From NCBI GenBank assembly GCA_964645245.1, contig CAZYBS010000001.1, forward strand, positions 91,388-155,387: a stretch of DNA of 64,000 nucleotides, given 5' to 3'. Position 1 is the first letter of the stretch. Each line of letters begins with the position of its first letter. The stretch comes from an uncultured Candidatus Saccharibacteria bacterium. GTDB taxonomy: Bacteria > Patescibacteriota > Minisyncoccia > Phycocordibacterales > UBA9973. Of this stretch, positions 34,082 to 53,827 are shown in pieces. The notes under the pieces were generated by a model that did no database searches, was not told where the DNA came from, and saw only the letters and a list, made by a program, of their open reading frames with translations. The translations under genes were made by a program, and so were the position numbers.

Positions 34082-36601
34082 ATGGGTAAAATGACAGCAA
34101 AAAATATCACAATAAAATTTATCTCTGTCTTGCTGATTATTTCTATAATAATGCCGGCTGTTTTATTTTCCAGACCCCAAAAAGCGGACGCCCAGTTCTC
34201 TGGCTGGGTTTCAGACTTTTTTGCCCCTTTTACAGCGGGAAGTACCGGAGTAAGCGCGGGGGTCAATACGACAGAAACAGCTTTTTCAATTAAAAATTTT
34301 GCAAAAGACATCGCCCAGCAGGTACTTATGGCTATTGCCAGGAGATCCCTGCAGGAAATAACTAAAAGCACTGTAAACTGGATAAATACCGGCAGGTGGG
34401 GTAACCCGCTTTTCTTAGAAAATCCAAATTCCTTCTTTAGGGATATAGCTAAATATGAAGTCAGAACCTTTGTGGACATGATCGGTTATGACCCGCTCCG
34501 ATATCCTTTTGGTAGAAATATTGCTTTAAGTACGATAGATACTTTTAAAAGAAAATTTGAAGATAATGCGCAATACAGCTTGAGTAAGGTTATCAATGAC
34601 CCTATTTTACTGCGGGATTACCGAAATAATTTTAATGTGGGAGGATGGAACGGTTTTCTGATAAATACCCAATACCCGCAAAATAATTATATAGGATTTC
34701 AGATGCTGGCGACCGAAGAACTGGCTAGAAGAACAACAGGACTAGCTCAAAATAAAGCGGAGGAAATAAATAAAAAACTACAGCAGGGAATGGGTTTCTT
34801 GTCTCCACAAATTTGCCGTTCTAATCCTAATTATCCCCCAGCCACAAATCCATACAATCCTCCAGTATTTAAAGAAACACCATGGGCTCCGCCGCCAGTG
34901 TCCGACCTTTCTTATGCTGTTGATGCAAATGGAAACTTCATATATGACGCAAATGGAAACCCTGTACCGGACCAATCACGAAGCAGGTATGATTTATATA
35001 AATCTAATTGGGAACGAACAAACCAAATCAACAGAGAGAATTTTAACAAAAAATATGATTGCCCGGAGGGTTTGATAAATACTACTCCCGGCGGCGTAGT
35101 GGCAAACCAAATAACAACTGCGATGAGTTCAGTAGTCCGCAATAAAGAATTGGCGGCAGCTATGGGTAATAGCATTTCGGCTATTTTGGATACTCTATTA
35201 AGTAAGTTTATGGGTGACGGACTAAGTGCTTTAACAAGCAAGGTGAACCCGAAACCGCCTGCGGATGACTGGAGTTATCTGGGCAATACTTTAGGCAGCC
35301 CAAGTAATAATTTTGGTAATGATTGGAGTGTCGGTCCGGATGAAGTAATTGTGCTATCTGACTTTAAGACAGCAATAGATGATGGAATAAATAATACTGA
35401 AACAGAACTTCAATTAATGGGTGATCTAACGCAATTACTCAGTGAAATTTGGCCGGAAGCGCGAAAACTTGATATATGCATACCTGGTCCGAATATAGGC
35501 TGGCAAGACAGAACAACGGAAGAGATGACTAGAAATAGCAAAGGACTTCAAGGAGAAGCAAATAAAGATAGCGGGGAAAAATCAGTTCAAGCCGGCTTGG
35601 TTCTCAAAGAATTAAAATTCGCCGTAAATTTATTTAAGGATTGGATAAATAATAAAATGATAACCGAGCTTCCAAATTCAGTCATTTATATGGACGCAGT
35701 GGATGAAATCCACGATTTGGCCCAACAATCAGACGAGTTGACCGACAAAAAACGAGCTAAAACTCAAGCGCTGGCAAGGTTAAAAGCTATAGAGACAGCT
35801 CTGAATAATACGGAAAGGTTTTCAACTCAACCAGCTCCAGGTTCTACTGGAGAAATAATTTTGATATCGTTAAAAAAACAATATAATGCCACCAGGAATG
35901 CGGTCTCAAACAGTTTTACCATAGGAGACACACAAAACGAGCTAGCTATCGCGAAAGGTAAAAAGGCCAATCTGGAAAAGCTGGTAACAGAATGCGTGGC
36001 AGAGAGAAAAGCCAAGGGCTGGACAAACCCAGGCTGGACAAGCCAAGACAGACAAATAAACCAAGTTCTGTTTCAGAACAGCACATATCTTGACAAAGGC
36101 ACAGAACAAAATATATTCTGCGATTTCCCAATTCAGGAAGGATATGACCATGAATCTTTTAGACACGCCAATGATAACGAAAATCAAAGAAAAACTCTCA
36201 AAGAAAGAGAAGCAGGCATGGGTCCACGAACTATTTATCAAACAGTACCATATGTAAATGCAAAAGATGTATTGAAGTGGAAAGGAAAGCTTGGATTATT
36301 TAGCCACTCTGCCAACATGCAGCTAAGTTGCAACATTATATACAAAGCCAATGTTCTGGACTATAAAGGCAACTTGCCTGGAACAACTAATATAGTAGAT
36401 CCTTATCAGGAACTGCCGGATGATACGGGCGGGGGAGATGGGGATGGCGGGGGTGGAGGCGGCGGAGATGGAGGTAAAACGCCAAATCCGCACCATGCAA
36501 ATCCTCCGGGAGTTTGCGCGAGTGATGAAGAGGTTGCCGCATTCCTAGAAAACAATCCCGGAGATGAGGAGAGATTACCCACATCTTTCCCATGCAATTA
36601 A
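34082..36601 (+). CDS. Large secreted/cell-surface hypothetical protein (839 aa) with a C-terminal Gly/Asp-rich tail
   Basis: N-terminal signal anchor. No known domain. The tail is GGGDGDGGGGGGGDGGKTPNP. First gene of the T4SS-like block. Confidence 0.5.
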   Translation: MGKMTAKNITIKFISVLLIISIIMPAVLFSRPQKADAQFSGWVSDFFAPFTAGSTGVSAGVNTTETAFSIKNFAKDIAQQVLMAIARRSLQEITKSTVNWINTGRWGNPLFLENPNSFFRDIAKYEVRTFVDMIGYDPLRYPFGRNIALSTIDTFKRKFEDNAQYSLSKVINDPILLRDYRNNFNVGGWNGFLINTQYPQNNYIGFQMLATEELARRTTGLAQNKAEEINKKLQQGMGFLSPQICRSNPNYPPATNPYNPPVFKETPWAPPPVSDLSYAVDANGNFIYDANGNPVPDQSRSRYDLYKSNWERTNQINRENFNKKYDCPEGLINTTPGGVVANQITTAMSSVVRNKELAAAMGNSISAILDTLLSKFMGDGLSALTSKVNPKPPADDWSYLGNTLGSPSNNFGNDWSVGPDEVIVLSDFKTAIDDGINNTETELQLMGDLTQLLSEIWPEARKLDICIPGPNIGWQDRTTEEMTRNSKGLQGEANKDSGEKSVQAGLVLKELKFAVNLFKDWINNKMITELPNSVIYMDAVDEIHDLAQQSDELTDKKRAKTQALARLKAIETALNNTERFSTQPAPGSTGEIILISLKKQYNATRNAVSNSFTIGDTQNELAIAKGKKANLEKLVTECVAERKAKGWTNPGWTSQDRQINQVLFQNSTYLDKGTEQNIFCDFPIQEGYDHESFRHANDNENQRKTLKEREAGMGPRTIYQTVPYVNAKDVLKWKGKLGLFSHSANMQLSCNIIYKANVLDYKGNLPGTTNIVDPYQELPDDTGGGDGDGGGGGGGDGGKTPNPHHANPPGVCASDEEVAAFLENNPGDEERLPTSFPCN

Positions 36602-39051
36602 ATATAGAAATGAAAAAGAAAGCTAAAAAAATAATTCCGTACTGCTTGATACTGATCGCGATATTCGCATTGGTTGGACTTTTTAACCCGGCGGGGGAGG
36701 CGCAGGCGCAGACACCGCCGCCAATAACCACAACTGGATGCTATAACGTAAACAATCAGATTCAGGGTACTCCCCCACTTAATCAAAGTCAATGTTTAGC
36801 GCTTGGAAGTTCGGTACGTTGGGTAGTGGTAGCAGGTACCCCGACTCCGGCATCACCTCGAGCGGCAGGGGAGGATTCAGAGCTTACAAAGAATATACCG
36901 GGCTGTGCGGTTATTACCGGTGATTTTGACGATTGTATAGTAAAAATTTCATACTATCTTTTTTATTCTCTTCCATCCTTTTTACTGGGCATAGTAGCAA
37001 GTATTTTTAATGTTGTACTGTCTATTTCATTAAGCAGCTCTCTTTACACTAAATCTCCCTTTATCCCTGAAGCATGGGCGGTTGTCCGAGATCTTTCCAA
37101 TATTTTTTTCATACTTATCCTGCTTTATATAGGAATAAAAATAATTTTAGGACTTGGCGGGTCTGAGGTCAAAAAGATGATAGCTCAAATTATAATCATG
37201 GCACTTTTAATCAACTTTTCTATGTTTTTCACAAAGATAGTTATTGATGCTTCCAATATCTTAGCATTGATTTTTTATAATAAAATTGATACTGAAGTGA
37301 AGATAACAACGGGCTCAACCAACATGACAACCACAGGGAGAGATTATCTGCCAATTACCAACCCGGCAATAACTGGTAACGTGGAAAAAGATATTGCGGG
37401 TGGATTGGCCTCCGCCTTCAAACCTGGTGAAATGCTAACTCCAACTTTCTTTGAAAAAGCCGCGACGAGAACTATAAGGGCACCGAGCTTGTCAGGTGCC
37501 GCCGCTTATACACTCGGCGGAGCGCTTGCAGGAAGTTTCATACCAGTCGTTGGCACGGCAATAGGAGCGGGGGTTGGAATTGCAGGCTATGCGGCTAGTA
37601 CTATTTTTGGTTTATGGACAAGTGAACCGGTGCCAAACTCTCTATTGTTTGGAATAATTGTTACAAGCGGAGCAATTATGTTTTTCGCGATTTATGCATT
37701 TTTTATATCAGGTATGAGCTTCATAGGCAGATTGATTGAACTTTGGATATTGATTATCGCTTCCCCTTTCGCTTTTATGTCTTCAACTGTACCATTACTA
37801 AGCGGTATACCTCACGTCGGCTGGAAAGAATGGTTAAAACGCCTTTTACAAGTTTCTTTTATGGCGCCAATTTTTATGTTCTTTTTATATTTGATATTTA
37901 AATTGGTATCAATAGATGTATTTGGAGATATTGCAGCTAGAGGCTTCGCAGACCAGGGTACCTTTGAGGCTATAGCACTGCTTTCTATAAAAGCTATAAT
38001 AATTTTAATACTTCTTCTAAAAGCAACTTCTTTTGCTAAAAAGTGGTCAGGCCAATTAGGGGAGATGATGATGAAAGGCGTGGCAATAGCAGGAGGAATT
38101 GCCGGTGGATTGGCAATAGGTGGAACAGCATCTGTGTTACAAGCAAGTGTGGGTAAGTATAGTGACCGGTTTGCCGAATCCACAACAGCAAAAAGATGGA
38201 TAAGAGAAGGCAGATTTGGTGCTGATACCTTACAGAAAATGACCAGCTATCTGGGAGGTGCAAGCTTTGATGCAAGAAAGGGAGTGGCTGGTGCAGCTTT
38301 AGGCGCTGTGTCTTCAGTGACTGGATTAGATCTCGGAGCAAAATCCCAATTATTATTAAAGAAGGATGGCGGATACAGGGAAGATAGGAAGAAGGCTGTA
38401 GAAAAGAGAATGCAGAGAGCACAAGAGCTTGAAGTTGGAGAAGACGAGGAGCTTACACGAAACTTACATGAACTAGAAGAACAGAAACAGGGGTTGCTTA
38501 GAGACGTTTCACATGATATTGAACAACTTGATAACAGAATTAAGACTTGGAGGGATAGGTCAAGAGATAGAGCTGAAAGAGTCAGGGTACTAAATGGCGA
38601 CCCTAATGCAACTCAAGCAGAAAGGGGTGCAGCGGCGGTAGAGGCAAGAGAAGCAGTTGATAATCTGAGAGAACTAAATACACATAGGAGGGCAATTAAA
38701 GACGGAGAGAATTTCACTCCGACAGCTGTTTCAGCCATAAACCTAGCAGACGTAGGAGTAGTGCAAGCTTACAGTACAAGGGCTAGGGTAGGTGGAGTAG
38801 CTACAGGAGCTTCAATAAATCAGTTGGAAGACACTTTTATCCCCCAGGTTCAGCATGAAATAGAAAGAGAAAACAGAGACAGAAAATGGGCTTACGCTAA
38901 CTACACCGAGATGGGAGGCGGAGGAATCAGAAACTTTTTCAGAGCAATAGGATTACAGCGAGCAGGAGACAACGAAGAATCTCGCAGAGAAGCCGCTCAT
39001 AAAATAATAATGGAGGCAAAGGTAGAGGATAAAGGAGGAGAGCATAGTTAA
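36592..39051 (+). CDS. VirB6/TrbL-like polytopic membrane protein with a long C-terminal coiled-coil extension
   Basis: Signal peptide, then ≥6 TM helices (…IFFILILLYIGIKIILGLGG…IIIMALLINFSMFFTKIVID…). Placement in the cluster with VirB4 and the PrgI-like protein. Confidence 0.5.
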   Translation: MQLNIEMKKKAKKIIPYCLILIAIFALVGLFNPAGEAQAQTPPPITTTGCYNVNNQIQGTPPLNQSQCLALGSSVRWVVVAGTPTPASPRAAGEDSELTKNIPGCAVITGDFDDCIVKISYYLFYSLPSFLLGIVASIFNVVLSISLSSSLYTKSPFIPEAWAVVRDLSNIFFILILLYIGIKIILGLGGSEVKKMIAQIIIMALLINFSMFFTKIVIDASNILALIFYNKIDTEVKITTGSTNMTTTGRDYLPITNPAITGNVEKDIAGGLASAFKPGEMLTPTFFEKAATRTIRAPSLSGAAAYTLGGALAGSFIPVVGTAIGAGVGIAGYAASTIFGLWTSEPVPNSLLFGIIVTSGAIMFFAIYAFFISGMSFIGRLIELWILIIASPFAFMSSTVPLLSGIPHVGWKEWLKRLLQVSFMAPIFMFFLYLIFKLVSIDVFGDIAARGFADQGTFEAIALLSIKAIIILILLLKATSFAKKWSGQLGEMMMKGVAIAGGIAGGLAIGGTASVLQASVGKYSDRFAESTTAKRWIREGRFGADTLQKMTSYLGGASFDARKGVAGAALGAVSSVTGLDLGAKSQLLLKKDGGYREDRKKAVEKRMQRAQELEVGEDEELTRNLHELEEQKQGLLRDVSHDIEQLDNRIKTWRDRSRDRAERVRVLNGDPNATQAERGAAAVEAREAVDNLRELNTHRRAIKDGENFTPTAVSAINLADVGVVQAYSTRARVGGVATGASINQLEDTFIPQVQHEIERENRDRKWAYANYTEMGGGGIRNFFRAIGLQRAGDNEESRREAAHKIIMEAKVEDKGGEHS

Positions 39052-39064
39052 AAAATAAAAAATC

Positions 39065-39568
39065 ATGACTGAAAAATTAAAACAAACAATTAAAGAGGAG
39101 GTGATGAAGTTGCCGAAAGAATTGCAGGAGGCTATCAACGCTTTTGATTGGGTGAAAGTTACAGAAGAACTGGGAGAAAAATATAAACTTTCAGAAAGCG
39201 AACTGAATGATTTTCAAGTAGAAACCTTGTTGGTTTTAGTAGGATTCACGGATCTGAATTTTTATGCAACTGCCATTGAAAATCGGGTTGGCATTACTAA
39301 AGATGACGCAAAAAAAATGGCTGACGAAGCCTTAGAAAAAATATTTACCCCAATAGCGGACAAAATTACCGAAAAAATTAAAGAAAAAACAAAAAACAAA
39401 AACCCGAGCCCGGAACAGACGCTTAATTTCATTCTTTCTGGCGGAGACTACTCGGCTTTTATGGAACAAAGAGAAAATCAAGCACAAGAAGCTGCGCCAA
39501 CTAATAAGCCTATAAATCCTCCATCTCTGGCCGACATAAAAGCTAAGTTATTAATAGACAATAAATAA
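39065..39568 (+). CDS. Small acidic hypothetical protein (tandem paralog A)
   Basis: Shares an N-terminal helical motif with the ORF at 39570 (…DW…LE.E.LL..GL…ELENRM…). Confidence 0.4.
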   Translation: MTEKLKQTIKEEVMKLPKELQEAINAFDWVKVTEELGEKYKLSESELNDFQVETLLVLVGFTDLNFYATAIENRVGITKDDAKKMADEALEKIFTPIADKITEKIKEKTKNKNPSPEQTLNFILSGGDYSAFMEQRENQAQEAAPTNKPINPPSLADIKAKLLIDNK

Positions 39569-39569
39569 A

Positions 39570-40217
39570 ATGCAAACACCAATAGATTTACTGCAAATAA
39601 AGATTGAAAAAGCCAGAGCAGCCTTGCCGGCCGAAACTCTCAATGCCATTGCCGCTGTTGATTGGAAGGCAGCCATTCTGGGGATGAGAGCTAAAAAAGG
39701 ATATACCTTTGAGCAATTGGGGGATTTAGAGCTGGAAACAGAATTATTGCTCTGCGGCCTTTTAGCTCCCGGTGGTTATCCGAAGGAATTGGAAAACAGA
39801 ATGAAAATCTCCAGAGCTCAAGCAAATGAATTGGTAAATGAAATGAATGACTTAGTTTTTAAAAAGATAAGAGAAGAATTAATCAAGAATACTGAAAGAA
39901 AAAAAATATTCGCAAATAAGATGACCCCCCCGCTCCGACCTGAGTCGAAGCACTCCCCCTTAGCAGGGGGAGAGGATAAAGCCTCCCTTGATAAGGGGAG
40001 GTTGGAGGGGTTTGGGGAGAAAAAGGAATCATTACCAATACCGGGGAAACTAGAACTTGAAACAGCCCATCCAATATTAGCGCAAAAATTATCCGGTTCT
40101 TTTCAAATTCCGATGGTAAAAACCGATCACTCCTTGAAAAATCTCCAGCCCTCTTCCACCCAGAACGGAACAATCCCAAAAAAGCCGGTCGATCCTTATA
40201 GGGAAATACCGGAATAA
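39570..40217 (+). CDS. Small hypothetical protein (tandem paralog B) with an in-frame GC-rich repeat insertion
   Basis: Paralogous N-terminus. The segment PPLRPESKHSPLAGGEDKASLDKGRLEGFGEKK is encoded by repeat DNA at 39935-40020. Confidence 0.4.
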   Translation: MQTPIDLLQIKIEKARAALPAETLNAIAAVDWKAAILGMRAKKGYTFEQLGDLELETELLLCGLLAPGGYPKELENRMKISRAQANELVNEMNDLVFKKIREELIKNTERKKIFANKMTPPLRPESKHSPLAGGEDKASLDKGRLEGFGEKKESLPIPGKLELETAHPILAQKLSGSFQIPMVKTDHSLKNLQPSSTQNGTIPKKPVDPYREIPE

Positions 40218-40221
40218 AATT

Positions 40222-40656
40222 ATGCAATTCAAAGTCCCACAATTTTTAGACATAGAAGACAAGATTTTTGGCCCATTTACTTTCAGGGAATTTGTTTATT
40301 TGGCCGGCGGGGCAGGTTTATGTTTTGTACTTTATAAAATACTAGGGCTTTATTTGGGCGCTATCCCAATTTTAGCCGCAGCGGGACTGGCGCTGGCGCT
40401 TACTTTCTACCGGCCAAATAATAAGCCTTTTATAAATATGATTGAGGCGGGATTCAACTATTTTGTAAAAGATAAACTTTATATCTGGAAAAGACGTAAG
40501 GCTAAAATGAGCAGTGACAGACAATTAGAAACTTCGGATGGAGATAGAAAGAGAGAAAACTTGGAGAACGAGGTCCGGCTGGGCGGAAATAAGTTGCGAG
40601 ACCTGGCTTGGAGTTTGGATGTGCTAGACTCAAATAAACACCAAAATGAGTTATAA
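40222..40656 (+). CDS. PrgI-like (VirB3-like) conjugation-system membrane protein
   Basis: MQFKVPQFLDIEDKIFGPFTFREFVYLAGGAGLCF… matches the PrgI-family N-terminus. Two TM helices. Confidence 0.45.
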   Translation: MQFKVPQFLDIEDKIFGPFTFREFVYLAGGAGLCFVLYKILGLYLGAIPILAAAGLALALTFYRPNNKPFINMIEAGFNYFVKDKLYIWKRRKAKMSSDRQLETSDGDRKRENLENEVRLGGNKLRDLAWSLDVLDSNKHQNEL

Positions 40657-40680
40657 AGTTTATAAAGTAAAAACAAAAAG

Positions 40681-41319
40681 ATGGCCCTAAACGCAAAAGC
40701 AACTCAAGAATTTGTACCAATCAAGGAGGTCCGCGACGGAATAATTATGTTGAAAGACGGCGGATTGCGGGCAATTGTGCTGGCCAATTCAGTCAACCTA
40801 TCCTTAAAATCAGACGACGAACAGAAAGCAACAATCCTTCAATTCCAGAGTTTTCTTAACACTTTGGACTTTGCTGTCCAAATATCGGTGCAATCAAGAA
40901 GACTGGATATCCGGCCTTACCTTTTACTTTTGGAAGAAAGAATAAAAGTGCAAAACGAGCCCTTGCTTAAGTTGCAAACAAAAGAATACGTAGAGTTCGT
41001 TAGAAATTTCACTGAGTCGGTGAGTATAATGACCAAAAGCTTTTTTGTTGTGGTTCCTTATACGCATACTGTTCTAAAATCAGATTCCGGAACATTTAAA
41101 CGCCTATTTGGAATAAGAAGTAAAGAAGAAGTAAAAATAGCCAAGCAAGAAGACTTTGAAGAAAAGAGGTCCCAACTGGAAGAAAGAGTGGGGGTAATAC
41201 AGCAAGGACTTGGCCGTTGCGGTATAAAATCAGCCCAATTAGGCACGGAAGAGATTGTGGAGGTATTTTATAAAGTTTTTAATCCCGGGGAAGTGGAAGG
41301 GAAAATTAAGCTGGAATAA
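40681..41319 (+). CDS. VirB4-like N-terminal domain, encoded as a separate ORF 5 nt upstream of the VirB4 ATPase body in another frame
   Basis: …VPIKEVRDGIIMLKDGGLRAIVLANSVNLSLKSDDEQKATILQFQSFLNTLDFAVQISVQSRRLDIRPYL resembles the extreme N-terminus of VirB4/TrbE proteins. Combined length 212+626 = 838 aa, about full VirB4 size. Confidence 0.45.
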   Translation: MALNAKATQEFVPIKEVRDGIIMLKDGGLRAIVLANSVNLSLKSDDEQKATILQFQSFLNTLDFAVQISVQSRRLDIRPYLLLLEERIKVQNEPLLKLQTKEYVEFVRNFTESVSIMTKSFFVVVPYTHTVLKSDSGTFKRLFGIRSKEEVKIAKQEDFEEKRSQLEERVGVIQQGLGRCGIKSAQLGTEEIVEVFYKVFNPGEVEGKIKLE

Positions 41320-41324
41320 AAATT

Positions 41325-43205
41325 ATGTCTATTTTTGACACATTATTTAGAAAAAAGAAAATGGGGGGTGAAGTTCACCCCGCCGATGGCGGGGCAAGTG
41401 CCTCAATTTTAGCGGTATTGCCAGAACAAATCTACGAATCAGCCAGTCTGGAACTGCAAGATGTCATCGCGCCCTCGGCGCTTAAAATTGAATCAAAATC
41501 CATAAACCTGGGCGATAAAATCGCGCGCACTTTTTTCATAATATCTTATCCGAGATTTTTGACCGACAATTGGTTTTCCCCAATAATCAACTTGGATAAA
41601 GTTTTTGATATTTCAATTTTTATCCACCCGATAGATACATCCTTAATGCTGCGGCAATTTCAGAAAAAAGTCGCTGAAGTGCAAAGCCAAATAAGCGTAC
41701 GCGAGAGCAAGGGGATGGTGCGCGACCCGATGCTCGATACCGCTTACCAAGACCTGGAAGGACTCCGCGACAATTTAATCCAGGCGCAGGAAAAAATGTT
41801 TGATGTCGGTATTTATATCACAATTTATGCCAACAATGACTTGGAACTTTTCAAACTTGAAAATGAAATAAAGTCAATGCTGGAGTCAAAATTAATATAC
41901 ATTAAACCGGCGCTTTTTCAGCAAGAAGACGGTTTTAAGAGCGTTATACCGATAAATACCGATTTACTAAATATCCACCAAAAATTAAATTCTGAACCGC
42001 TTTCCAGCGTTTTCCCTTTCATTTCTTTTGACTTAACTTCTGATAAAGGCGTACTCTACGGCGTCAACCGGCATAATTCCAGTTTGGTAATTTTTGACAG
42101 ATTTTCTCTGGAGAATTATAACTCGGTAACTTTTGCTAAAGCCGGCGCAGGTAAATCATATGCCACGAAACTGGAAGTTTTAAGGTCTTTGATGTTTGAT
42201 ATTGATGTCATTATAATAGACCCGGAACGGGAATATGAATTTTTGGCGGAAGCTGTGGGCGGACGATATTTCAGCATTTCCCTTTCCTCGGACCACCACA
42301 TGAACCCTTTTGATTTGCCAATGCCACGCGAAGACGAAACAGCCGAAGATGTCTTGCGTTCAAATATTATTAACCTCGTTGGACTTTTCCGATTAATGCT
42401 GGGAGGGCTTACGCCGGAAGAAGATTCAATGGTGGACCGCGCCATTTCCGAGACTTATGCCATCAAAGACATTACTCCAGAATCAGATTTTTCAAACATT
42501 GAACCTCCACTTCTTTCCGACTTTGAAATGGTGCTTTCGGGAATGGAAGGAAGCGATTCGGTCGTGCAGAGATTGGCGAAATACACCAAAGGTTCTTGGG
42601 CGACATTTTTAAACAGGCCTTCCAATGTGGACATTAATAAAAAGTTTGTGGTATTTTCCATCCGCGATATGGAAGACGAATTAAAGCCAGTCGCAATGTA
42701 TATCATTATGCATTATATCTGGAATGCAATACGCAAAAATTTGAAAAAGCGCTTATTGGTTGTGGATGAAGCTTGGTGGATGATGAAATCCGAAGATACT
42801 GCATCTTTTCTCTATTCTATCGCCAAGCGAGGCAGAAAATATTATCTGGGCCTTTCCACTATCACTCAAGATGCGGCTGACTTTTTGAATTCCCCCTACG
42901 GCGTACCGATAATCACCAACTCTTCCATCCAGCTTCTCCTAAAACAATCCCCCACCACTATTGATATCCTGCAAAAAACTTTTAATCTTACCGACGAAGA
43001 AAAATATCTTCTTTTAGAATCCAGTGTGGGTGAGGGCATCTTCTTCGCAGGATTAAAGCATGTCGCCATAAAAGTCATTGCTTCTTATACCGAAGACCAG
43101 ATTATCACCTCCGATCCTTCACAAATACTATCAAACAGAAAAGCCAAAGAAGAGCAGGAGGCAGAGCAAATACGGACACCAGATAGAGCTTTAGGCGCTA
43201 TCTAG
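41325..43205 (+). CDS. VirB4/TrbE/CagE-family type IV secretion ATPase (body)
   Basis: CagE_TrbE_VirB-like region (…LGDKIARTFFIISYPRFLTDNWFSPII…). Walker A FAKAGAGKSYATK, Walker B LLVVDEAWWMM. Confidence 0.8.
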   Translation: MSIFDTLFRKKKMGGEVHPADGGASASILAVLPEQIYESASLELQDVIAPSALKIESKSINLGDKIARTFFIISYPRFLTDNWFSPIINLDKVFDISIFIHPIDTSLMLRQFQKKVAEVQSQISVRESKGMVRDPMLDTAYQDLEGLRDNLIQAQEKMFDVGIYITIYANNDLELFKLENEIKSMLESKLIYIKPALFQQEDGFKSVIPINTDLLNIHQKLNSEPLSSVFPFISFDLTSDKGVLYGVNRHNSSLVIFDRFSLENYNSVTFAKAGAGKSYATKLEVLRSLMFDIDVIIIDPEREYEFLAEAVGGRYFSISLSSDHHMNPFDLPMPREDETAEDVLRSNIINLVGLFRLMLGGLTPEEDSMVDRAISETYAIKDITPESDFSNIEPPLLSDFEMVLSGMEGSDSVVQRLAKYTKGSWATFLNRPSNVDINKKFVVFSIRDMEDELKPVAMYIIMHYIWNAIRKNLKKRLLVVDEAWWMMKSEDTASFLYSIAKRGRKYYLGLSTITQDAADFLNSPYGVPIITNSSIQLLLKQSPTTIDILQKTFNLTDEEKYLLLESSVGEGIFFAGLKHVAIKVIASYTEDQIITSDPSQILSNRKAKEEQEAEQIRTPDRALGAI

Positions 43206-43224
43206 CGCCTAAAGCTCTATCTGG
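43169..43224. promoter_or_regulatory. Long palindrome CCAGATAGAGCTTTAGGCGCTATCTAGCGCCTAAAGCTCTATCTGG at the virB4 stop
   Basis: Shares CCAGATAG…GCGCTATCTGG arms with the palindrome at 17369-17394. Candidate terminator or operator. Confidence 0.5.
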
Positions 43225-43260
43225 ATAGTCAATTATCATATTTGGTTATATAATTGGGTT

Positions 43261-44229
43261 ATGAAATTAAAATTTTCATTATTAATTGCAGTACTCATGC
43301 TGTCTGGAACAGTAGCAAATGCCGCTTCATCCAGCAGTATCTTGGTTAACATCGTACCTGAAAGTCCAGCTCCGTATGAAGACATAGCTATTAGCTTGAA
43401 CAGTTATGCCAATAACCTAGACAGCGTTTTAATAACATGGTCTCTGGATGGTAAAAGTGTTCTATCTGGAATTGGGAAAAAATCGTTCTCCTTAAAAGCT
43501 CCGGCTGCCGGCTCTGAGACTATCGTCACCACTGTCATATCTTTGCCAGCTGGTAATATAGAAACAAGGATGATAATAAGGCCATCTGTCATGATACTAC
43601 TTTGGCAAGCAAATGATTCTTATGTTCCGCCATTTTATAAAGGCAAAGCCCTACCGACAGCCGACAGTGAGATAAAAATAATAGCTATGCCCGAAATAAG
43701 AATAACTTCTGGATTAGCTGATTCAAAAAATATGACTTACGCTTGGAAAAAAGATTATACCAACGACCAAGGGGCTTCGGGTTATGGCAAAAACTTTTTT
43801 CTTTACACCAATGATTATCTAGAAGATTCCAACAATATATCGGTGGTAGCATCAACGGTAGACCAGAAATATTCAAGTCAAGCAAGCATAACTATAGGAA
43901 CAAAAGAACCAAAAATATTATTTTACAAAAATGATAATAGTATCGGAACAATTTGGGAAAAAATACTTACTAATCCGCATAAAATACAAGGTGATGAGAC
44001 AGTCGTAGCAATACCTTATTTTATTTCACCGAAAGAAATACAAAATCCGAGGTTAGTATGGAACTGGTTCATTAATGATAATATAGTAAATATATTAGGT
44101 TTTAAAAAGAATTTTATGCCGCTTAAAGTGCAAGAGGGAACTTCTGGAACATCTAAATTAAAATTAGAAATTGAAAACAAGGATAAAATTTTTCAGACAG
44201 CCAGTAAAGAAATTAATATAGAATTTTAA
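43261..44229 (+). CDS. Secreted hypothetical protein (signal peptide, beta-rich)
   Basis: MKLKFSLLIAVLMLSGTVANA signal peptide. No known domain. Confidence 0.45.
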   Translation: MKLKFSLLIAVLMLSGTVANAASSSSILVNIVPESPAPYEDIAISLNSYANNLDSVLITWSLDGKSVLSGIGKKSFSLKAPAAGSETIVTTVISLPAGNIETRMIIRPSVMILLWQANDSYVPPFYKGKALPTADSEIKIIAMPEIRITSGLADSKNMTYAWKKDYTNDQGASGYGKNFFLYTNDYLEDSNNISVVASTVDQKYSSQASITIGTKEPKILFYKNDNSIGTIWEKILTNPHKIQGDETVVAIPYFISPKEIQNPRLVWNWFINDNIVNILGFKKNFMPLKVQEGTSGTSKLKLEIENKDKIFQTASKEINIEF

Positions 44230-44230
44230 A

Positions 44231-45277
44231 ATGAAAAAAATATTAATTTATATTTTAATACTCATTATACTGGTCGGAGTAAGCCTGCCAATCTATGCGC
44301 AAACACAAACGCCCTGCCAGACGGATTATGTCCGAGTAGGTGGTAGGTGTGTTCCTGCAAGCAGTTATATTCTTTTAGCTCCACTGCCTTGCGCAGAAGG
44401 TACTCCTGGATGCATTGACGGAAAATTGAAGACTTTTAATCCCGAGCAAAAAGATAGTGCCGGAAAAAGTACTGCTCTAGGCACATATTTAAACCTTATG
44501 ATAAAAATAATTATCGGTCTGGCGGCGGTTTTGTCTGTGATAATGATTGTTGTGGGCGGGCTGGAGTATATGACCAGCGAACTGATATCCAGCAAAGAAG
44601 AAGGTAAAAAAAGAATTCTAGGCGCGATTTTTGGGCTTCTTTTGGCCCTAGGCGCTTATGCGCTTTTAAATACAATAAACCCCGACCTGCTTAGTACCGA
44701 TATAAAAATAGATCAGGCAACGATTACGGTAACGTTAGATGAAGCAAATTTTGCAAAAACAGAACAAACTGTAGCTACTGCCGGAACAAGATATGCACTA
44801 AGTGGAGCTCCAAGTCCTGGCGTTTCCGATTTTATAAGAAATCGTCTTAGCCAAGGACAACCATTAAGAACTATTGTTGTAGACACTAGTACACGCAGAG
44901 CATACTTTTATGTTGGTCCAGCCGGAAACTGGAATACATTTGTAGCTGTTCCGGTAAATCTTGGATTGAATGGCATAGCGGAAATAGGACAAGCACAAGC
45001 AGGTGATGGCAAAACTCCAAAAGGAACCACAACTTTAGGTTCAGTTGCACTAGCAAGCAACGGAAATGCTGTTACCGTTGCAGGGGGGAGATATAATGTT
45101 GGTGCTGCTTTTGTTAATGTAGGTGCAACAATAAATGGGACAGATAGAGGAATTGGTTTTCATGGATCAGCTAACAATGCCCTAGGAACAACTAACGGTT
45201 GTATTAGAATGACTAATGATGATTTAGCCGCTTTAACGCCATACATGAGAGCAGGGGTAACGGTACTTATAAAATAA
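44231..45277 (+). CDS. Fusion protein: VirB2/TrbC-pilin-like hydrophobic hairpin plus a C-terminal L,D-transpeptidase (YkuD) catalytic domain
   Basis: Signal peptide. Middle segment LNLMIKIIIGLAAVLSVIMIVVGGLEYM…ILGAIFGLLLALGAYALL is pilin-like (two TM helices). C-terminal …GFHGSANNALGTTNGCIRMTNDDLAALTPYMRAGVTVLI is the YkuD His/Cys motif. Confidence 0.55.
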   Translation: MKKILIYILILIILVGVSLPIYAQTQTPCQTDYVRVGGRCVPASSYILLAPLPCAEGTPGCIDGKLKTFNPEQKDSAGKSTALGTYLNLMIKIIIGLAAVLSVIMIVVGGLEYMTSELISSKEEGKKRILGAIFGLLLALGAYALLNTINPDLLSTDIKIDQATITVTLDEANFAKTEQTVATAGTRYALSGAPSPGVSDFIRNRLSQGQPLRTIVVDTSTRRAYFYVGPAGNWNTFVAVPVNLGLNGIAEIGQAQAGDGKTPKGTTTLGSVALASNGNAVTVAGGRYNVGAAFVNVGATINGTDRGIGFHGSANNALGTTNGCIRMTNDDLAALTPYMRAGVTVLIK

Positions 45278-45278
45278 G

Positions 45279-46667
45279 ATGTCAAGAAGAAATCTTATAC
45301 TTTTAATAATAATCTTGGTTGCCGTGGTAATTACGGTTTTTGGATTTTTATATTTACGCCAAGGAAAAATTGTGCCGGGAGAAGAAGGTCCAGGCACCAA
45401 TTTTATTTCACGATTCAACCCATTTGGAAGTAAAACGACTCCTCCAGTTGTGGCGCCTCCAATTGACGTTTCAGGATACCAGCCCGATTCTGGAGAAGAA
45501 ACACCAAAACTGAAACTAATGAAAGTTTCCAGTATGCCTATAGCAGGGTTTGCGGTGTTTATAAAAGAAAGATTAAAAGAGGTGCCGATAGCTCCCCTCC
45601 TTGTGGAGGAGGGGGTTGGGGGTGGTGATAGTTCTACAACACCACCTCGCCCTTCGGGCACTCCTCCTCGGAAAGGAGGAGAGAAAGCCAAGCCTACCCC
45701 ACCACTGACTGAATTTGTGCCAGCTTTAAGATATGCAGAGCGAGCGACGGGAAATATCTATCAAACTTTCACGGATAAAATAGAAGAAAGAAAATTCTCA
45801 GGAACGACAATACCCAAAGTATATGAGGCATATTTTGGCAATCGCGCAGAGTCTGTAATTATGCGATATTTAAAAGCTGATGACAAAACCATCGAAACTT
45901 TTGTCGGTACTCTTCCGAAAGAATACTTGGGGGGAGACACAACAAAAAACAATGAAATAAAGGGGTCTTTTTTACCCAATAATATTAAAGATATAAGTCT
46001 TTCGCCGGATGCTTCAAAAATATTCTACTTGTTTAGCAGTGGAGTTAATTTGGGAAACAATATAGTAGGTACAACTGCGAGCTTGTTGGATAATAAAAAA
46101 GTTCAAGTTTTTGATTCCCCTTTCACCGAATGGCTATCATTTTGGCCAACTAGTAAAATGATTACCCTTTCCACTAAACCTTCCAGTAATGTCCCCGGAT
46201 ATATGTACATGCTCGACCTGGATAAGAAAAATCTAACTAAAATTTTAGGCGATATAAATGGACTCACTACTCTGACAAGCCCTAACGGGAAATTAGTTCT
46301 TTACGGTGACAACAGTTTATCACTGTATATCTATCATACCGATAACAGAAATTCTGATTTATTGGGGGTAAAGACTTTGCCTGAAAAATGCGTTTGGGGT
46401 AAAGTAAGTGATGTTATTTATTGTGCTGTGCCAAAATTAATTGACCTAGGCGCATATCCGGATACCTGGTATCAAGGAGAAGTATCTTTTAGTGATCAGT
46501 TTTGGAAAATAGACATCAAAAGCGGAAATGCAACTTTAATAATGGACCCAGTTACAGTTACCGCCGAAGAAATTGACGGTATTAAACTCGATCTAGACGA
46601 AAGTGAAAATTACTTATTTTTTGTAAATAAAAAAGATTCTTTTCTCTGGAAGTTGGATTTGAAATAA
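45279..46667 (+). CDS. Membrane-anchored hypothetical protein with a beta-propeller-like C-terminal region and an in-frame repeat insertion
   Basis: N-terminal TM. Repeat-encoded LLVEEGVGGGDSSTTPPRPSGTPPRKGGEKAKP. The C-terminal half resembles a TolB-like propeller. Confidence 0.45.
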   Translation: MSRRNLILLIIILVAVVITVFGFLYLRQGKIVPGEEGPGTNFISRFNPFGSKTTPPVVAPPIDVSGYQPDSGEETPKLKLMKVSSMPIAGFAVFIKERLKEVPIAPLLVEEGVGGGDSSTTPPRPSGTPPRKGGEKAKPTPPLTEFVPALRYAERATGNIYQTFTDKIEERKFSGTTIPKVYEAYFGNRAESVIMRYLKADDKTIETFVGTLPKEYLGGDTTKNNEIKGSFLPNNIKDISLSPDASKIFYLFSSGVNLGNNIVGTTASLLDNKKVQVFDSPFTEWLSFWPTSKMITLSTKPSSNVPGYMYMLDLDKKNLTKILGDINGLTTLTSPNGKLVLYGDNSLSLYIYHTDNRNSDLLGVKTLPEKCVWGKVSDVIYCAVPKLIDLGAYPDTWYQGEVSFSDQFWKIDIKSGNATLIMDPVTVTAEEIDGIKLDLDESENYLFFVNKKDSFLWKLDLK

Positions 46668-51310: not shown

Positions 51311-53827
51311 TTACTGCTGCACTTTAAATATTGAAGTTGCTTCATTACTGTTGTAAACACTATCGTAGGCGATTATTTTGATTTCATTCTCCATTTGCAA
51401 GTTTTCTAATTCCCCGGGGATAAAAGAAAAAGCAGAAGTGAGACTGGAGGTTCCCAAATAGGTATCGTTTACAAAAATGTCTATTTTAGCCAGCGGATAA
51501 GGGCCAGAGCTCAAAATTTTTAAATTTATTTTTTGACCAGGCAGGTAAGTTGTTTTTACATTTGGTTCAATAATTGAGATAATTGGTTTGGCTGAGTCGG
51601 TGTGTACGTCGTCCAGCATACTTGGCTTTTCGTTCAAAGTTATTATTCCGTATTTTCCTTTATTTTGCATCCACCAGTTTTGTACTGGTATTTCCCAATG
51701 GCTAAATTGTGGATCGTCGCTCGGGTTTAAAGGCGGTGCCCCTAAAATATCATTTTTATTTATCCAATAAAGAATTGAGTGCACATTGGTTATTACTTTT
51801 TCCTGCAGGGTCTCCTTGGGGGTGTTGGAATTTGCCAATTTACGGGAGATTTTATCTATAAAAAAGTTTTCATTTCCTTGCCAAAATCCTCGAAGGGCTG
51901 GTTTTACCGTCTTCGGGTCGATATCCAAGTTTGGCTTTTCAAATTTTTCATCGGGTAGAGTTTTTAAAACCTCATTCATAAATTTATTCCAAATCGGTCC
52001 CGCCACGGCCACCCCGCCTTTCTTCATTGGTCGATTGTCATTGTTGCCCGCCCAAACACCGGCAACAATCGATGGGGTATAACCGATAGTCCAGGCATCT
52101 TTATTATTATTTGTTGTCCCGGTTTTCACTGCCACGTCTTTCCCGGGTATAAAAAGAGCTGAATGTATTCCGAAAGTCGGGCTACGAGCCTTTTCATCAG
52201 ATAAAATATCTGAAACAGTTAAGGCGGTATTTTTAGGTAAAACTTCCTGTGCATTTGGCGTAAATTCTTCCAGGATTTTCCCGCTTAAATCTTCAACTTT
52301 CAAAATTCCAGTATATGGATTTCTAATACCATCATTGGCAAAAACTCCATAGGCCGATGTCATATCCAGAAGCGACACTTCTCCGCCTCCAATAACCAGG
52401 GTCAGTCCGTATCGGCCAATATCGGAGAGAGTGCTAATCCCCAGATCTTCGGCTGTTTTTAGTGAATCGGAAGTCCCGGCTAAGTAAAAAAGTTTTACCG
52501 CTACCAGGTTGATTGACTGCGCTAAAGCATCTCTTAAAGAAATTGGCCCACGGAATTTTTCGTCATAGTTGTCAGGCATATAACAATCTTTTTGATTGTG
52601 TCCAGGCAGAGCTTTGCCTTGCGCGTTGCAGGTTGTCTGGAATTCTGTCGGCAAGTCAAAGAGCATGGTGTCGGGGGTAAAGCCTTTATTGAAAGCGGTG
52701 GCGTAAATGAAGGGCTTGAAAGATGAGCCCGGCTGCCGATTGGCGGTGGCTATATTATAGTTGCCGTCTATGCTTTTATCAAAGTAGTCCCTAGAGCCTA
52801 CCATTGTTAAAATCTGCCCAGTTTTAGGGTCTATCGCCACCAGGCCGGCATTTTCCCCATTCCAATCTTTTTCATTTTTCAATGCACCTTCTTTTACAAT
52901 TTGCTCTGCTTTTTCTTGTAAATCATAATTTAATGTGCTGATAACTTTCAATCCGCCTTTTTCTACCATTTCACTTCCATGTTTCTCTTCCAGATAATCT
53001 TTAATGAAAAAAACAAAGTGCGGCGCCTTAATCCCCATCGTCGCCGGTGGAATAAAAATTACAATTTCCTTTTTTGCTTTGTCGTATTCTTCTTTAGAAA
53101 TGAAATTTAGCTCGGACATCCTGGAAAGCACTAAATTTTTTCTAGCTTCCAATTTGTCTTTATTTTTGCCATAGGGCGACAATAAGGTTGGAGATTGCGG
53201 GATTGATGCCAAATAGGCTGCCTCCGCCAGGGTCAAAGAGCTTGCTTCTTTATTAAAATAAGTTTTACTGGCTTCTTCTATTCCATAAACATTTCCACCG
53301 TAGGGAGCTTCATTTAAGTAATATTCCAGGATTTTTTCTTTCGGGATGGAGTTGTCTATTTTAATTGCCAAGACCCATTCTTTTATTTTCCGGGCATAAG
53401 TTTTTTTCTGTGTTAAAAGAGTATTTTTTACTAACTGTTGGGTTATGGTTGAACCGCCTTGAGTACGGCCGGTGCCAAAAATATTGGACAAGACAGCGCG
53501 AACAATAGAAGTAATTCTTATTCCACGATGATTATAAAATTCAGAATCCTCAATGGCCACGGTAGCGTTTTTGATATTTACCCCCATATTTTCAAAAGTT
53601 ATGTCAGTTCTTTTTGTATCTTTATGTATATCATAAAGTAGAATCTCTCCCGTGCGGTCATATATTTTTGTAGAATTTTCTATTTTTCTGTCTTCAAAAG
53701 AATGAAAATCCGGAATTTTCAAAGAAGAAAGCCAGACGATTATTATTCCGGTTATCAAAATAACAATGCCGGCAGAAAGTAATATCACATTTTTCCAGAA
53801 ATTTTTATTTCTAGGTCTCTTTTGCAT
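51311..53827 (-). CDS. Bifunctional class A penicillin-binding protein (GT51 transglycosylase + transpeptidase)
   Basis: GT51 motifs (…EDSEFYNHRGI… and …GGSTITQQLVKN…). Transpeptidase motifs SGSSFKPF and KTGTT. C-terminal extension. Confidence 0.85.
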   Translation of the reverse strand: MQKRPRNKNFWKNVILLSAGIVILITGIIIVWLSSLKIPDFHSFEDRKIENSTKIYDRTGEILLYDIHKDTKRTDITFENMGVNIKNATVAIEDSEFYNHRGIRITSIVRAVLSNIFGTGRTQGGSTITQQLVKNTLLTQKKTYARKIKEWVLAIKIDNSIPKEKILEYYLNEAPYGGNVYGIEEASKTYFNKEASSLTLAEAAYLASIPQSPTLLSPYGKNKDKLEARKNLVLSRMSELNFISKEEYDKAKKEIVIFIPPATMGIKAPHFVFFIKDYLEEKHGSEMVEKGGLKVISTLNYDLQEKAEQIVKEGALKNEKDWNGENAGLVAIDPKTGQILTMVGSRDYFDKSIDGNYNIATANRQPGSSFKPFIYATAFNKGFTPDTMLFDLPTEFQTTCNAQGKALPGHNQKDCYMPDNYDEKFRGPISLRDALAQSINLVAVKLFYLAGTSDSLKTAEDLGISTLSDIGRYGLTLVIGGGEVSLLDMTSAYGVFANDGIRNPYTGILKVEDLSGKILEEFTPNAQEVLPKNTALTVSDILSDEKARSPTFGIHSALFIPGKDVAVKTGTTNNNKDAWTIGYTPSIVAGVWAGNNDNRPMKKGGVAVAGPIWNKFMNEVLKTLPDEKFEKPNLDIDPKTVKPALRGFWQGNENFFIDKISRKLANSNTPKETLQEKVITNVHSILYWINKNDILGAPPLNPSDDPQFSHWEIPVQNWWMQNKGKYGIITLNEKPSMLDDVHTDSAKPIISIIEPNVKTTYLPGQKINLKILSSGPYPLAKIDIFVNDTYLGTSSLTSAFSFIPGELENLQMENEIKIIAYDSVYNSNEATSIFKVQQ

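Follow-up and report, generated by a model that had tools for sequence, protein, structure and literature searches.

The type IV secretion system (T4SS) of Patescibacteria, described in 2025, is chromosomal, lies close to the replication origin (near dnaA) and is MPF-FATA-related (PMC12102498). Its VirB2-like pilins are detected by the Pfam models PF04956 and PF18895, and most Patescibacteria genomes with VirB2 lack VirB1 (PMC12102498). According to a 2025 review, the T4SSs of Patescibacteria are unique among those of monoderms in having VirB2-like pilins, and a pilin array and the T4SS are essential in a Saccharibacterium (PMC12857230). Here we describe a gene from such a cluster in an uncultured Candidatus Saccharibacteria bacterium (GenBank assembly GCA_964645245.1), whose metagenome-assembled genome is of the Parcubacteria/Paceibacteria group. 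It lies in a stretch of 64,000 nucleotides of contig CAZYBS010000001.1 (positions 91,388 to 155,387), which we call the window, and it encodes a pilin-like module and an L,D-transpeptidase (LDT) domain of the YkuD family in a single polypeptide. An earlier note, made from the letters of this DNA alone, had proposed such a fusion inside a T4SS-like cluster and had suggested that the transpeptidase remodels or cross-links peptidoglycan at the secretion site, or attaches the secretion structure to the wall. Comparison with relatives upholds the fusion and its setting and points to a different view of its C-terminal part: this part, here called the head, appears to be a cassette that has been swapped recently and repeatedly behind a conserved pilin-like module, the YkuD domain being one allele of it.

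The VirB2/TrbC pilins and the VirB2-like pilins of Patescibacteria resemble the fusion protein in having a signal peptide, a two-helix hairpin and a short basic loop. The likeness extends to the VirB3-, VirB4- and VirB6-like neighbours, and the site near dnaA matches the Paceibacteria report. Known pilins are, however, small and single-domain, whereas the fusion protein bears a head of ~180 residues, and where Saccharibacteria have arrays of free-standing divergent pilins, this locus has a single pilin gene with the variation in its head. A membrane-tethered wall-active enzyme within a T4SS operon is likewise familiar from VirB1, PrgK (pCF10), TraG (pIP501) and CD419, and domains of the VirB1/PrgK/TraG type (SLT, NlpC/P60, CHAP-type Amidase_5) occur in sister alleles of our gene. 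Those enzymes are anchored by a single transmembrane helix and the fusion protein by a pilin-like hairpin; since it has no lytic transglycosylase, CHAP or NlpC/P60 domain, it is not a VirB1-family protein by domain content, and in the literature searched a YkuD fold is not reported for VirB1-type proteins. Unlike the VirB1/PrgK types, moreover, the fusion family has heads that are polymorphic between near-identical strains.

No pilin fused to a YkuD, VanY, NlpC/P60 or similar domain is found in PMC12102498 or PMC12857230, and targeted literature searches gave no other paper on a pilin-enzyme fusion or on head polymorphism. The fusion is thus undescribed in the literature searched, as the earlier note had supposed, though databases do record the pair of pilin and YkuD domains: some sources label relatives 'L,D-transpeptidase family protein', and the JGI label is 'lipoprotein-anchoring transpeptidase ErfK/SrfK'. 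The T4SS and its pilins are already known; the pilin-enzyme fusion and the cassette polymorphism appear to be new.

The pilin-like module and the YkuD head

A database search with the fusion protein returned 269 homologs, and a genome scan found relatives of the gene in at least 508 species-level genomes. Our Pfam head census covers 120 database homologs and 80 genome loci, and all synteny and genome-locus head counts refer to these loci, which are the best 80 of the at least 508 relatives. They come from metagenome-assembled genomes of Patescibacteria, except for one contig of 1.9 kb that bears the label Gammaproteobacteria. When the conserved N-terminal module alone (the N-module, 115 residues) served as the query of an exhaustive search, 14,343 cluster representatives matched at E<=1e-3, while 3,375 still did so at E<=1e-10, and 81 of the 118 new top cluster representatives have a tail of at least 100 residues behind the module.

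The open reading frame (ORF) does contain the two hydrophobic stretches that had drawn attention to it (residues 87-114 and 129-146), and the C-terminal string quoted with them is at residues 309-347. The features of VirB2/TrbC pilins, namely a signal peptide and a two-helix hairpin with a short charged loop, are present both in hydropathy and in the AlphaFold2 model. A hydropathy scan gives three hydrophobic segments (~10-18, ~91-107 and ~136-141). The signal peptide and its cleavage site are predicted from sequence features; the hydropathy peak in this region is at residues 10-18 and the model has a helix at residues 2-16. In the Cys-rich region that follows, the cysteines are residues 29, 40, 54 and 61, short beta strands are modelled within residues 33-69, and conservation across the 120 homologs reaches at least 90% at Y46, L49 and P51. 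The hairpin itself is modelled as helices 82-115 and 119-148 with a predicted local distance difference test score (pLDDT) of ~80-89, and the loop between them is short and basic (SSKEEGKKR).

Three pilin models fall on the same residues 81-149: Pfam TrbC/VirB2 (PF04956; E 4.3e-5, 24.1 bits against a cutoff of 27.9), Pfam T4SS_pilin (PF18895; E 7.2e-5, 23.2 bits against 26.6) and NCBIfam NF045849, a pilin-like protein of a mycoplasma integrative and conjugative element (E 5.9e-4, also below cutoff). Across the family the match to T4SS_pilin at E<=1e-3 is found in 109 of the 120 homologs (best 5.5e-11) and 73 of the 80 loci (best 7.5e-11). The fusion protein is thus a probable member of the pilin family at the family level and is formally sub-cutoff by its own sequence. 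Of the hairpin as first proposed, the helices and the agreement of three pilin models stand, while none of the scores reaches its cutoff. The small, single-domain size typical of VirB2 pilins is not found either, as 348 residues include a folded head of ~180. A family-specific hidden Markov model (HMM) gave no second pilin-module ORF among the six-frame ORFs of at least 40 residues in the window, although a very divergent pilin would escape it, and the operon leaves no space for a separate pilin gene.

The conserved module closes with the motif INPDLL, in which N150 and P151 are invariant in alignments of 35 and of 120 sequences. A linker follows, with pLDDT below 50 at residues 158-165 of the model, and then the head, modelled with pLDDT above 90. 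By profile score, motif and fold the fusion protein is a member of the YkuD family. The match to Pfam YkuD (PF03734) spans residues 213-347 and positions 2-146 of the 146 in the profile; its score of 47.7 bits (E 3.3e-12) is well above the cutoff of 23.4. A Foldseek search of the PDB with the modelled head gives 24 matches at E<=1e-3, of which 23 have the LDT fold and one is annotated as amidase/peptidase (4xxt). The best match is YkuD of B. subtilis (1y7m), and LdtMt1/2, Bd1075, Pgp2, Csd6 and DpaA are further top matches. The His…Gly…Cys motif of LDTs that had been recognised in the C-terminus is intact: H311, G312 and C324 are invariant in 35 orthologs and R326 is at least 90% conserved, and upstream of this motif D259, T262, P263 and G265 are invariant too. 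Both the His and the Cys are kept in all 59 YkuD heads and an Arg or Lys in 57 of the 59. The motif has two peculiarities: Asn precedes Gly-Cys, where His is frequent, and the spacing of 13 residues from His to Cys is short. Since the C-terminus is modelled in the YkuD fold and its catalytic residues are kept in all YkuD-type relatives, the two objections that the earlier note had raised against itself, a non-catalytic fold and the loss of Cys or His in orthologs, fall away.

LdtA-C of E. coli (ErfK/YbiS/YcfS) attach Lpp to peptidoglycan. These enzymes, like DpaA, Csd6, Pgp2 and Bd1075, have the same catalytic fold and His/Cys motif as our head, but they lack a pilin module and occur outside any T4SS context, as lipoproteins or as soluble proteins of the periplasm. 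Tlde1a, an effector of the Salmonella type VI secretion system (T6SS), has an LDT fold with L,D-carboxypeptidase and D-amino-acid exchange activity (PMC9638812). It provides an example of an LDT-fold domain that is tied to a secretion system, alters peptidoglycan stems and damages the wall as a secreted effector; in contrast to the fusion protein, it is a soluble cargo of the T6SS, has a capping subdomain and is paired with an immunity protein, and among the matches listed for our head there is no direct one to it by sequence or structure.

Head diversity and exchange

The top ~50 database homologs have the same pilin-YkuD architecture and are 38-61% identical to the query. Lower-ranked homologs align over its N-terminal half only, and their C-terminal domains differ. 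YkuD heads account for 48 of the 120 homologs and 11 of the 80 loci; the corresponding numbers are 8 and 10 for VanY, 7 and 7 for NlpC/P60, 5 and 2 for Peptidase_M15_4, 3 and 4 for SLT_2, 3 and 1 for SLT_3, and 1 and 1 for Amidase_5, while SLT and Amidase_2 heads occur in one locus each. Clustering of the regions behind the module in 200 proteins gave at least 12 multi-member head families; the head is at least 100 residues long in 186 of these proteins, and the largest clusters are YkuD (59), a class that we call unk1 (45), VanY (18), the SLT-like class unk3 (17) and NlpC/P60 (14). Some 7% of the alleles are short or headless. The search for the fusion in related genomes, which the earlier note had suggested, shows it to be conserved in 59 YkuD-type relatives, with YkuD being one of many heads in the same slot.

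The slot is the same in the literal sense. The pilin-VanY, -M15_4, -SLT_2 and -NlpC/P60 alleles and one with an unassigned head all stand between partner genes of ~325 and ~450 codons, downstream of PrgI, TrsD-like and VirB4 genes and adjoining jag, yidC and dnaA. Headless alleles (156-220 residues) occupy this slot as well, with no extra gene inserted.

Nucleotide comparison of two loci from different samples, one with a YkuD head (L087) and the other with an SLT-like head (L088), shows the exchange at the DNA level. They are 97.6% identical over 3,991 bp up to codon ~164, identity of 100% resumes at the first base after the stop codon, and they differ only in the head (546 nt and 507 nt, respectively). 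A third related genome has a VanY head between flanks that are 90-95% identical. The downstream partner gene has exactly the same 5' end (100% identity) behind the YkuD and the SLT-like head, which means that this partner does not co-vary with the head.

Other pairs with different heads also have nearly identical N-modules: 100% for P0011 (YkuD) and P0102 (SLT-like) and 96% for P0002 (YkuD) and P0044 (unk1). Some genomes contain two copies with different heads. The N-modules are 100% identical in the two genes of L012 (6545-7897 and 9297-10331), 96% in the tandem genes of L043 (41-1519 and 1558-3285) and 95% in L031 and L037, which belong to one genome. In the aligned pairs identity spans the region from the signal peptide to INPxLL and collapses ~15-20 residues later, in the disordered linker. 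The two L012 genes have in common a block of 313 nt that is 100% identical, with no similarity beyond it; gene conversion or a very recent duplication is the suggested cause, and an effect of the assembly is a possible one. On a neighbour-joining tree of N-modules head type requires 114 Fitch changes (mean 126 after shuffling, minimum possible 23); the tree being short and poorly resolved, which inflates the count, this figure is only indicative, and the pairwise cases are the firmer evidence of exchange. Among the loci compared there is no very close relative of the window genome, the nearest VirB4 DNA being 81-83% identical, and so recent exchange is documented by other pairs of genomes rather than by the window itself.

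In several respects the family resembles polymorphic toxins (CdiA-CT, Rhs): a conserved N-terminal delivery part, a sharp junction and a variable C-terminal enzymatic domain, cassette replacement between close relatives, and extra copies in some genomes. Polymorphic toxins, however, have an adjacent immunity gene that co-varies with the toxin, and the fusion locus is without one, 76 of the 80 loci sharing the same downstream gene. Their toxic domains are nucleases and pore-formers, whereas the heads identified here are cell-wall enzymes on a T4SS pilin-like carrier. The fusion protein thus unites, in the manner of a hybrid, traits of VirB2-like pilins, of T4SS wall hydrolases and of cassette systems of the polymorphic-toxin kind.

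The unk1 heads (P0051, P0044, P0074 and others) comprise ~150-170 residues after the pilin module and are modelled with pLDDT above 90. They matched nothing in Pfam (E<=1), NCBIfam, PHROGs or, by sequence profile, the PDB; the AlphaFold2 model found no Foldseek match in the PDB or BFVD, and hhalign gave no match to the VanY and M15_4 heads. Their invariant His/His/Asp/Glu/His-Trp-His residues, accompanied by several Cys, suggest a metal site, and unk1 may be an unrecognised wall-enzyme or metal-binding fold.

Two observations concern the short alleles. Headless or short-tailed genes are present in L062 (6719-7357) and also in L020, L033, L044, L054 and L064, and the downstream partner in L062 (7360-8946) is longer, at 528 residues, and contains a segment that by eye resembles a PG_binding_1-type repeat. 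The relatives closest to the window by VirB4 DNA (81-83% identity) all carry short alleles.

The operon and its neighbourhood

In the plus-strand operon (34082-46667), whose ten genes are spaced by -10 to +55 bp (Table 1), the fusion gene is the ninth. PrgI/VirB3-like, TrsD-like and VirB4-type genes in one tight operon bear out its proposed location inside a T4SS cluster; homologs of VirB3, VirB4 and VirB6 are co-encoded with it, the last by position. In 74 of the 80 loci a VirB4 gene precedes the pilin gene by ~2.9 kb. The upstream partner directly precedes the fusion gene in 75 loci and the downstream partner directly follows it in 76, and jag is syntenic in 68, yidC in 67 and dnaA in 59. 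The gaps are mostly at contig ends, and L031 is a second copy outside the cluster.

Table 1. Coordinates of the fusion gene, its parts and other genes in the window.
Feature	Position	Strand	Basis or remark
Fusion ORF	44231..45277	+	ATG start, 348 residues
Predicted Sec signal peptide, residues 1-23 (MKKILIYILILIILVGVSLPIYA)	44231..44299	+	KK, then hydrophobic core
Cys-rich extracytoplasmic N-region, residues 24-80	44300..44470	+	four Cys, conserved YxLLAPLP motif
VirB2/T4SS_pilin-like two-helix membrane hairpin, residues 81-149	44471..44677	+	sub-cutoff HMM matches, model
INPDLL motif closing the conserved module	44675..44692	+	~15-20 residues upstream of the head-exchange junction
Flexible linker and cassette junction, residues 155-170	44693..44740	+	identity between alleles with different heads collapses here
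Head, residues 171-348: small helical subdomain and YkuD catalytic domain	44741..45274	+	Pfam, model, Foldseek
Catalytic motif H311-G312 ... T-N-G-C324-I-R326	45161..45208	+	codon positions verified
Large secreted protein, 839 residues, first gene of the operon	34082..36601	+	N-terminal hydrophobic segment
Polytopic membrane protein, 819 residues, putatively in the VirB6/PrgH position	36592..39051	+	~8-10 hydrophobic segments
Two adjacent hydrophilic ORFs	39065-39568, 39570-40217	+	weak paralogs, 26% identity, E 0.001
PrgI/VirB3-like protein	40222..40656	+	Pfam PrgI 34 bits, cutoff 27
TrsD/TraD-like protein, 212 residues	40681..41319	+	NCBIfam TrsD 2.5e-6, VirB4 N-region 1.1e-8, both sub-cutoff
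VirB4-type T4SS ATPase, 626 residues	41325..43205	+	Pfam P-loop_TraG 4.3e-25, AAA_10
Upstream partner, 322 residues	43261..44229	+	secreted
Downstream partner, 462 residues	45279..46667	+	N-terminal transmembrane segment
PBP1a gene	51311-53827		3' of the operon
UvrD/PcrA-type helicase, 1116 residues	28788-32138	+	appears to carry an intein

The two partner genes are likely to be uncharacterised core parts of the Paceibacteria-type T4SS. Their synteny is as strict as that of VirB4 and neither has a family assignment, the 322-residue upstream partner having no Pfam or NCBIfam match. The function of VirB4 looks split between the 212-residue ORF, which is like the VirB4 N-terminal region, and the ATPase that follows; the arrangement is kept in relatives, where the TrsD-like gene is annotated as PF26593 (TraC-like). 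The polytopic protein has no Pfam or NCBIfam HMM match and is syntenic in 46 of the 80 loci, a count limited by flank length. The protein that opens the operon likewise has no match in Pfam or NCBIfam, and large unannotated proteins fill this position in relatives; its C-terminus consists of a Gly/Asp low-complexity run (GGGDGDGGGGGGGDGG) and then a Cys-containing tail. Near the position of the two hydrophilic ORFs several relatives have a protein of 119-122 residues that matches 23S_rRNA_IVP (L001 5488-5847, L004 3573-3932, L088 3560-3928), and one such relative also weakly matches bAvd, a four-helix-bundle family that has a link to diversity-generating retroelements. On the 3' side of the operon lie jag, yidC, dnaA, dnaN, the PBP1a gene and a class I tRNA synthetase gene. 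Further upstream, weak matches to Intein_splicing, Hint and Hom_end_hint interrupt the domains of the UvrD/PcrA-type helicase.

Function of the head and rival explanations

We favour, with a probability of roughly 0.6, the reading that the gene encodes a pilin-like T4SS carrier presenting a polymorphic peptidoglycan-active head. The product would be a pilin-like subunit of the chromosomal, oriC-proximal Paceibacteria T4SS, composed of a carrier and an exchangeable head. After Sec export its hairpin would reside in the membrane with both ends outside and the basic loop in the cytoplasm, as in the VirB2 topology, and the flexible linker would present the globular head outside the membrane, an orientation with which the Cys-rich extracytoplasmic segments are consistent. 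In this genome the head is a YkuD enzyme with intact catalytic residues, whose likely substrate is the L,D bond in the tetrapeptide stems of peptidoglycan; sister genomes carry another wall enzyme, an unassigned domain or no head at all. Heads would be replaced when recombination exchanges the stretch that lies between the pilin module and the downstream gene, both of which are conserved. What the identified heads would have in common is action on peptidoglycan, be it on glycan strands, stem peptides or amide bonds, and its most likely task is to edit or open peptidoglycan at the very points at which a wall is crossed by the T4SS or its pilus, which would make the head a functional counterpart of the VirB1/PrgK-type enzymes. 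As to the reaction, hydrolysis or exchange is as compatible with the modelled fold as cross-linking.

Several points weigh against this reading. The pilin assignment of the fusion protein rests on sub-cutoff HMM matches; neither the single sequence nor a 20-sequence N-module profile matched a solved pilin among PDB sequences, Foldseek searches with two full-length models gave only noise and no pilin for the hairpin, and a tblastn search with the hairpin gave no match to a plasmid-borne pilin in 72,556 plasmids. A head of ~180 residues on every subunit might hinder packing of a pilus, and a membrane-retained protein with a short linker would reach the wall of its own producer only. Not all heads look like wall enzymes: several small Cys-rich ones appear non-enzymatic, and unk1, the second-largest class (45 of 200), is not identified as one. 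The structural neighbours of the YkuD head include cross-linking LDTs as well as hydrolases. No head-specific immunity-like gene is found next to the fusion gene in the 80 loci, the L087/L088 pair included, since the genes on either side stay conserved irrespective of the head. As for the exchange itself, the Fitch count is inflated, and the loci are derived from metagenome assemblies, in which chimeric joins across conserved sequence are possible and could exaggerate some of the identical-module pairs; despite this caveat, distinct heads demonstrably exist within one conserved flanking context.

The wall on which the head acts may belong to the producer or to another cell. Fast head turnover, genomes with two alleles and the dispensability of the head argue for a variable external target, such as the wall of a host, over the producer's own wall, and we modestly prefer the wall of a host or partner cell for the reason of rapid turnover; this implies that the pilin must be extruded. 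Modular pilins with a functional domain grafted onto them are known from type IV pili, Streptococcus sanguinis being an example. They too present a bulky C-terminal domain on a filament by means of a pilin module, but they belong to an unrelated pilin superfamily and their grafts are adhesive rather than exchangeable wall enzymes. A bolder reading, which we hold to be possible but less likely than not, is an 'armed' T4SS pilus or stalk, whose VirB2-like subunits would each bear a swappable wall enzyme on the outer face, here one with the LDT fold, with which the epibiont would cut or rewire host peptidoglycan at the site of contact, recombination swapping the heads as the wall chemistry of available hosts changes.

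The strongest alternative, which we consider rather unlikely, is that the protein remains in the membrane of its producer and substitutes for VirB1/PrgK/TraG at the T4SS, loosening the producer's own peptidoglycan to permit assembly of the machine, and that, with any wall-cutting domain being good enough, heads drift and are swapped neutrally. The fusion protein is the sole recognisable wall enzyme in the operon, monoderm T4SSs require membrane-anchored wall hydrolases (PMC12102498), and the PBP1a gene implies that the organism makes peptidoglycan itself; the short linker and the lack of an adjoining immunity gene also agree with an own-wall role. Neutral swapping, however, poorly explains cassette replacement between flanks that are 97.6-100% identical and leaves unexplained the genomes with two alleles bearing different heads. 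The headless alleles in the slot indicate that the head is not obligatory for the machine, and some heads appear to be non-enzymatic.

The function proposed in the earlier note, read here as that of a true L,D-transpeptidase which forms 3-3 cross-links around the site of secretion or links some component of the T4SS or pilus covalently to peptidoglycan, is weakened by the head diversity, and we regard it as improbable. The intact and conserved catalytic His, Cys and Arg speak for it, bona fide cross-linking LDTs (YkuD, LdtMt1/2) are among the top structural matches, and a VanY-type carboxypeptidase allele could in principle yield tetrapeptide donors for LDTs. Yet the orthologous slot holds VanY, M15_4, NlpC/P60, SLT, amidase and unassigned heads, or none. 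Since hydrolase heads, which cut glycan or peptide, and headless alleles cannot cross-link or anchor, anchoring is not the conserved role of the head, and the role shared across the slot is that of a generic wall-active or wall-binding head. In addition, the LDT-fold hydrolases Bd1075, Pgp2, Csd6 and DpaA are equally good structural matches, and the YkuD allele has no co-varying candidate for a substrate protein. We therefore find it less likely that the head is dedicated to cross-linking or to anchoring in the wall.

Finally, a housekeeping LDT on a generic two-helix anchor, with its pilin likeness and T4SS neighbourhood being coincidental, would agree with pilin scores below the curated cutoffs and with the lack of a match to solved pilins, but it is hardly credible and was discarded, given that three independent pilin-type models converge on the same residues, that 109 of the 120 homologs match T4SS_pilin, that ~75 of 80 genomes keep the gene at the same place between VirB4 and the partner genes and that the module stays when the YkuD head is replaced or lost.

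The reading of a pilin-like carrier with an exchangeable wall-active head offers one answer, for the Paceibacteria type, to the missing VirB1: the pilin gene itself encodes the wall enzyme. The T4SS of the Candidate Phyla Radiation/Patescibacteria is conserved, origin-adjacent and essential in the one lineage tested, and the enzyme part is among the fastest-changing pieces of an otherwise rigid operon. The heads are concrete candidates for how ultra-small epibionts open a wall, and they form a natural set of compact wall enzymes that includes at least one unrecognised head family. Head type can also serve as a marker that is testable against host range in metagenomes. If the idea of an armed pilus is true, the heads would represent a new class of polymorphic effectors, delivered within the pilin itself and without immunity genes.

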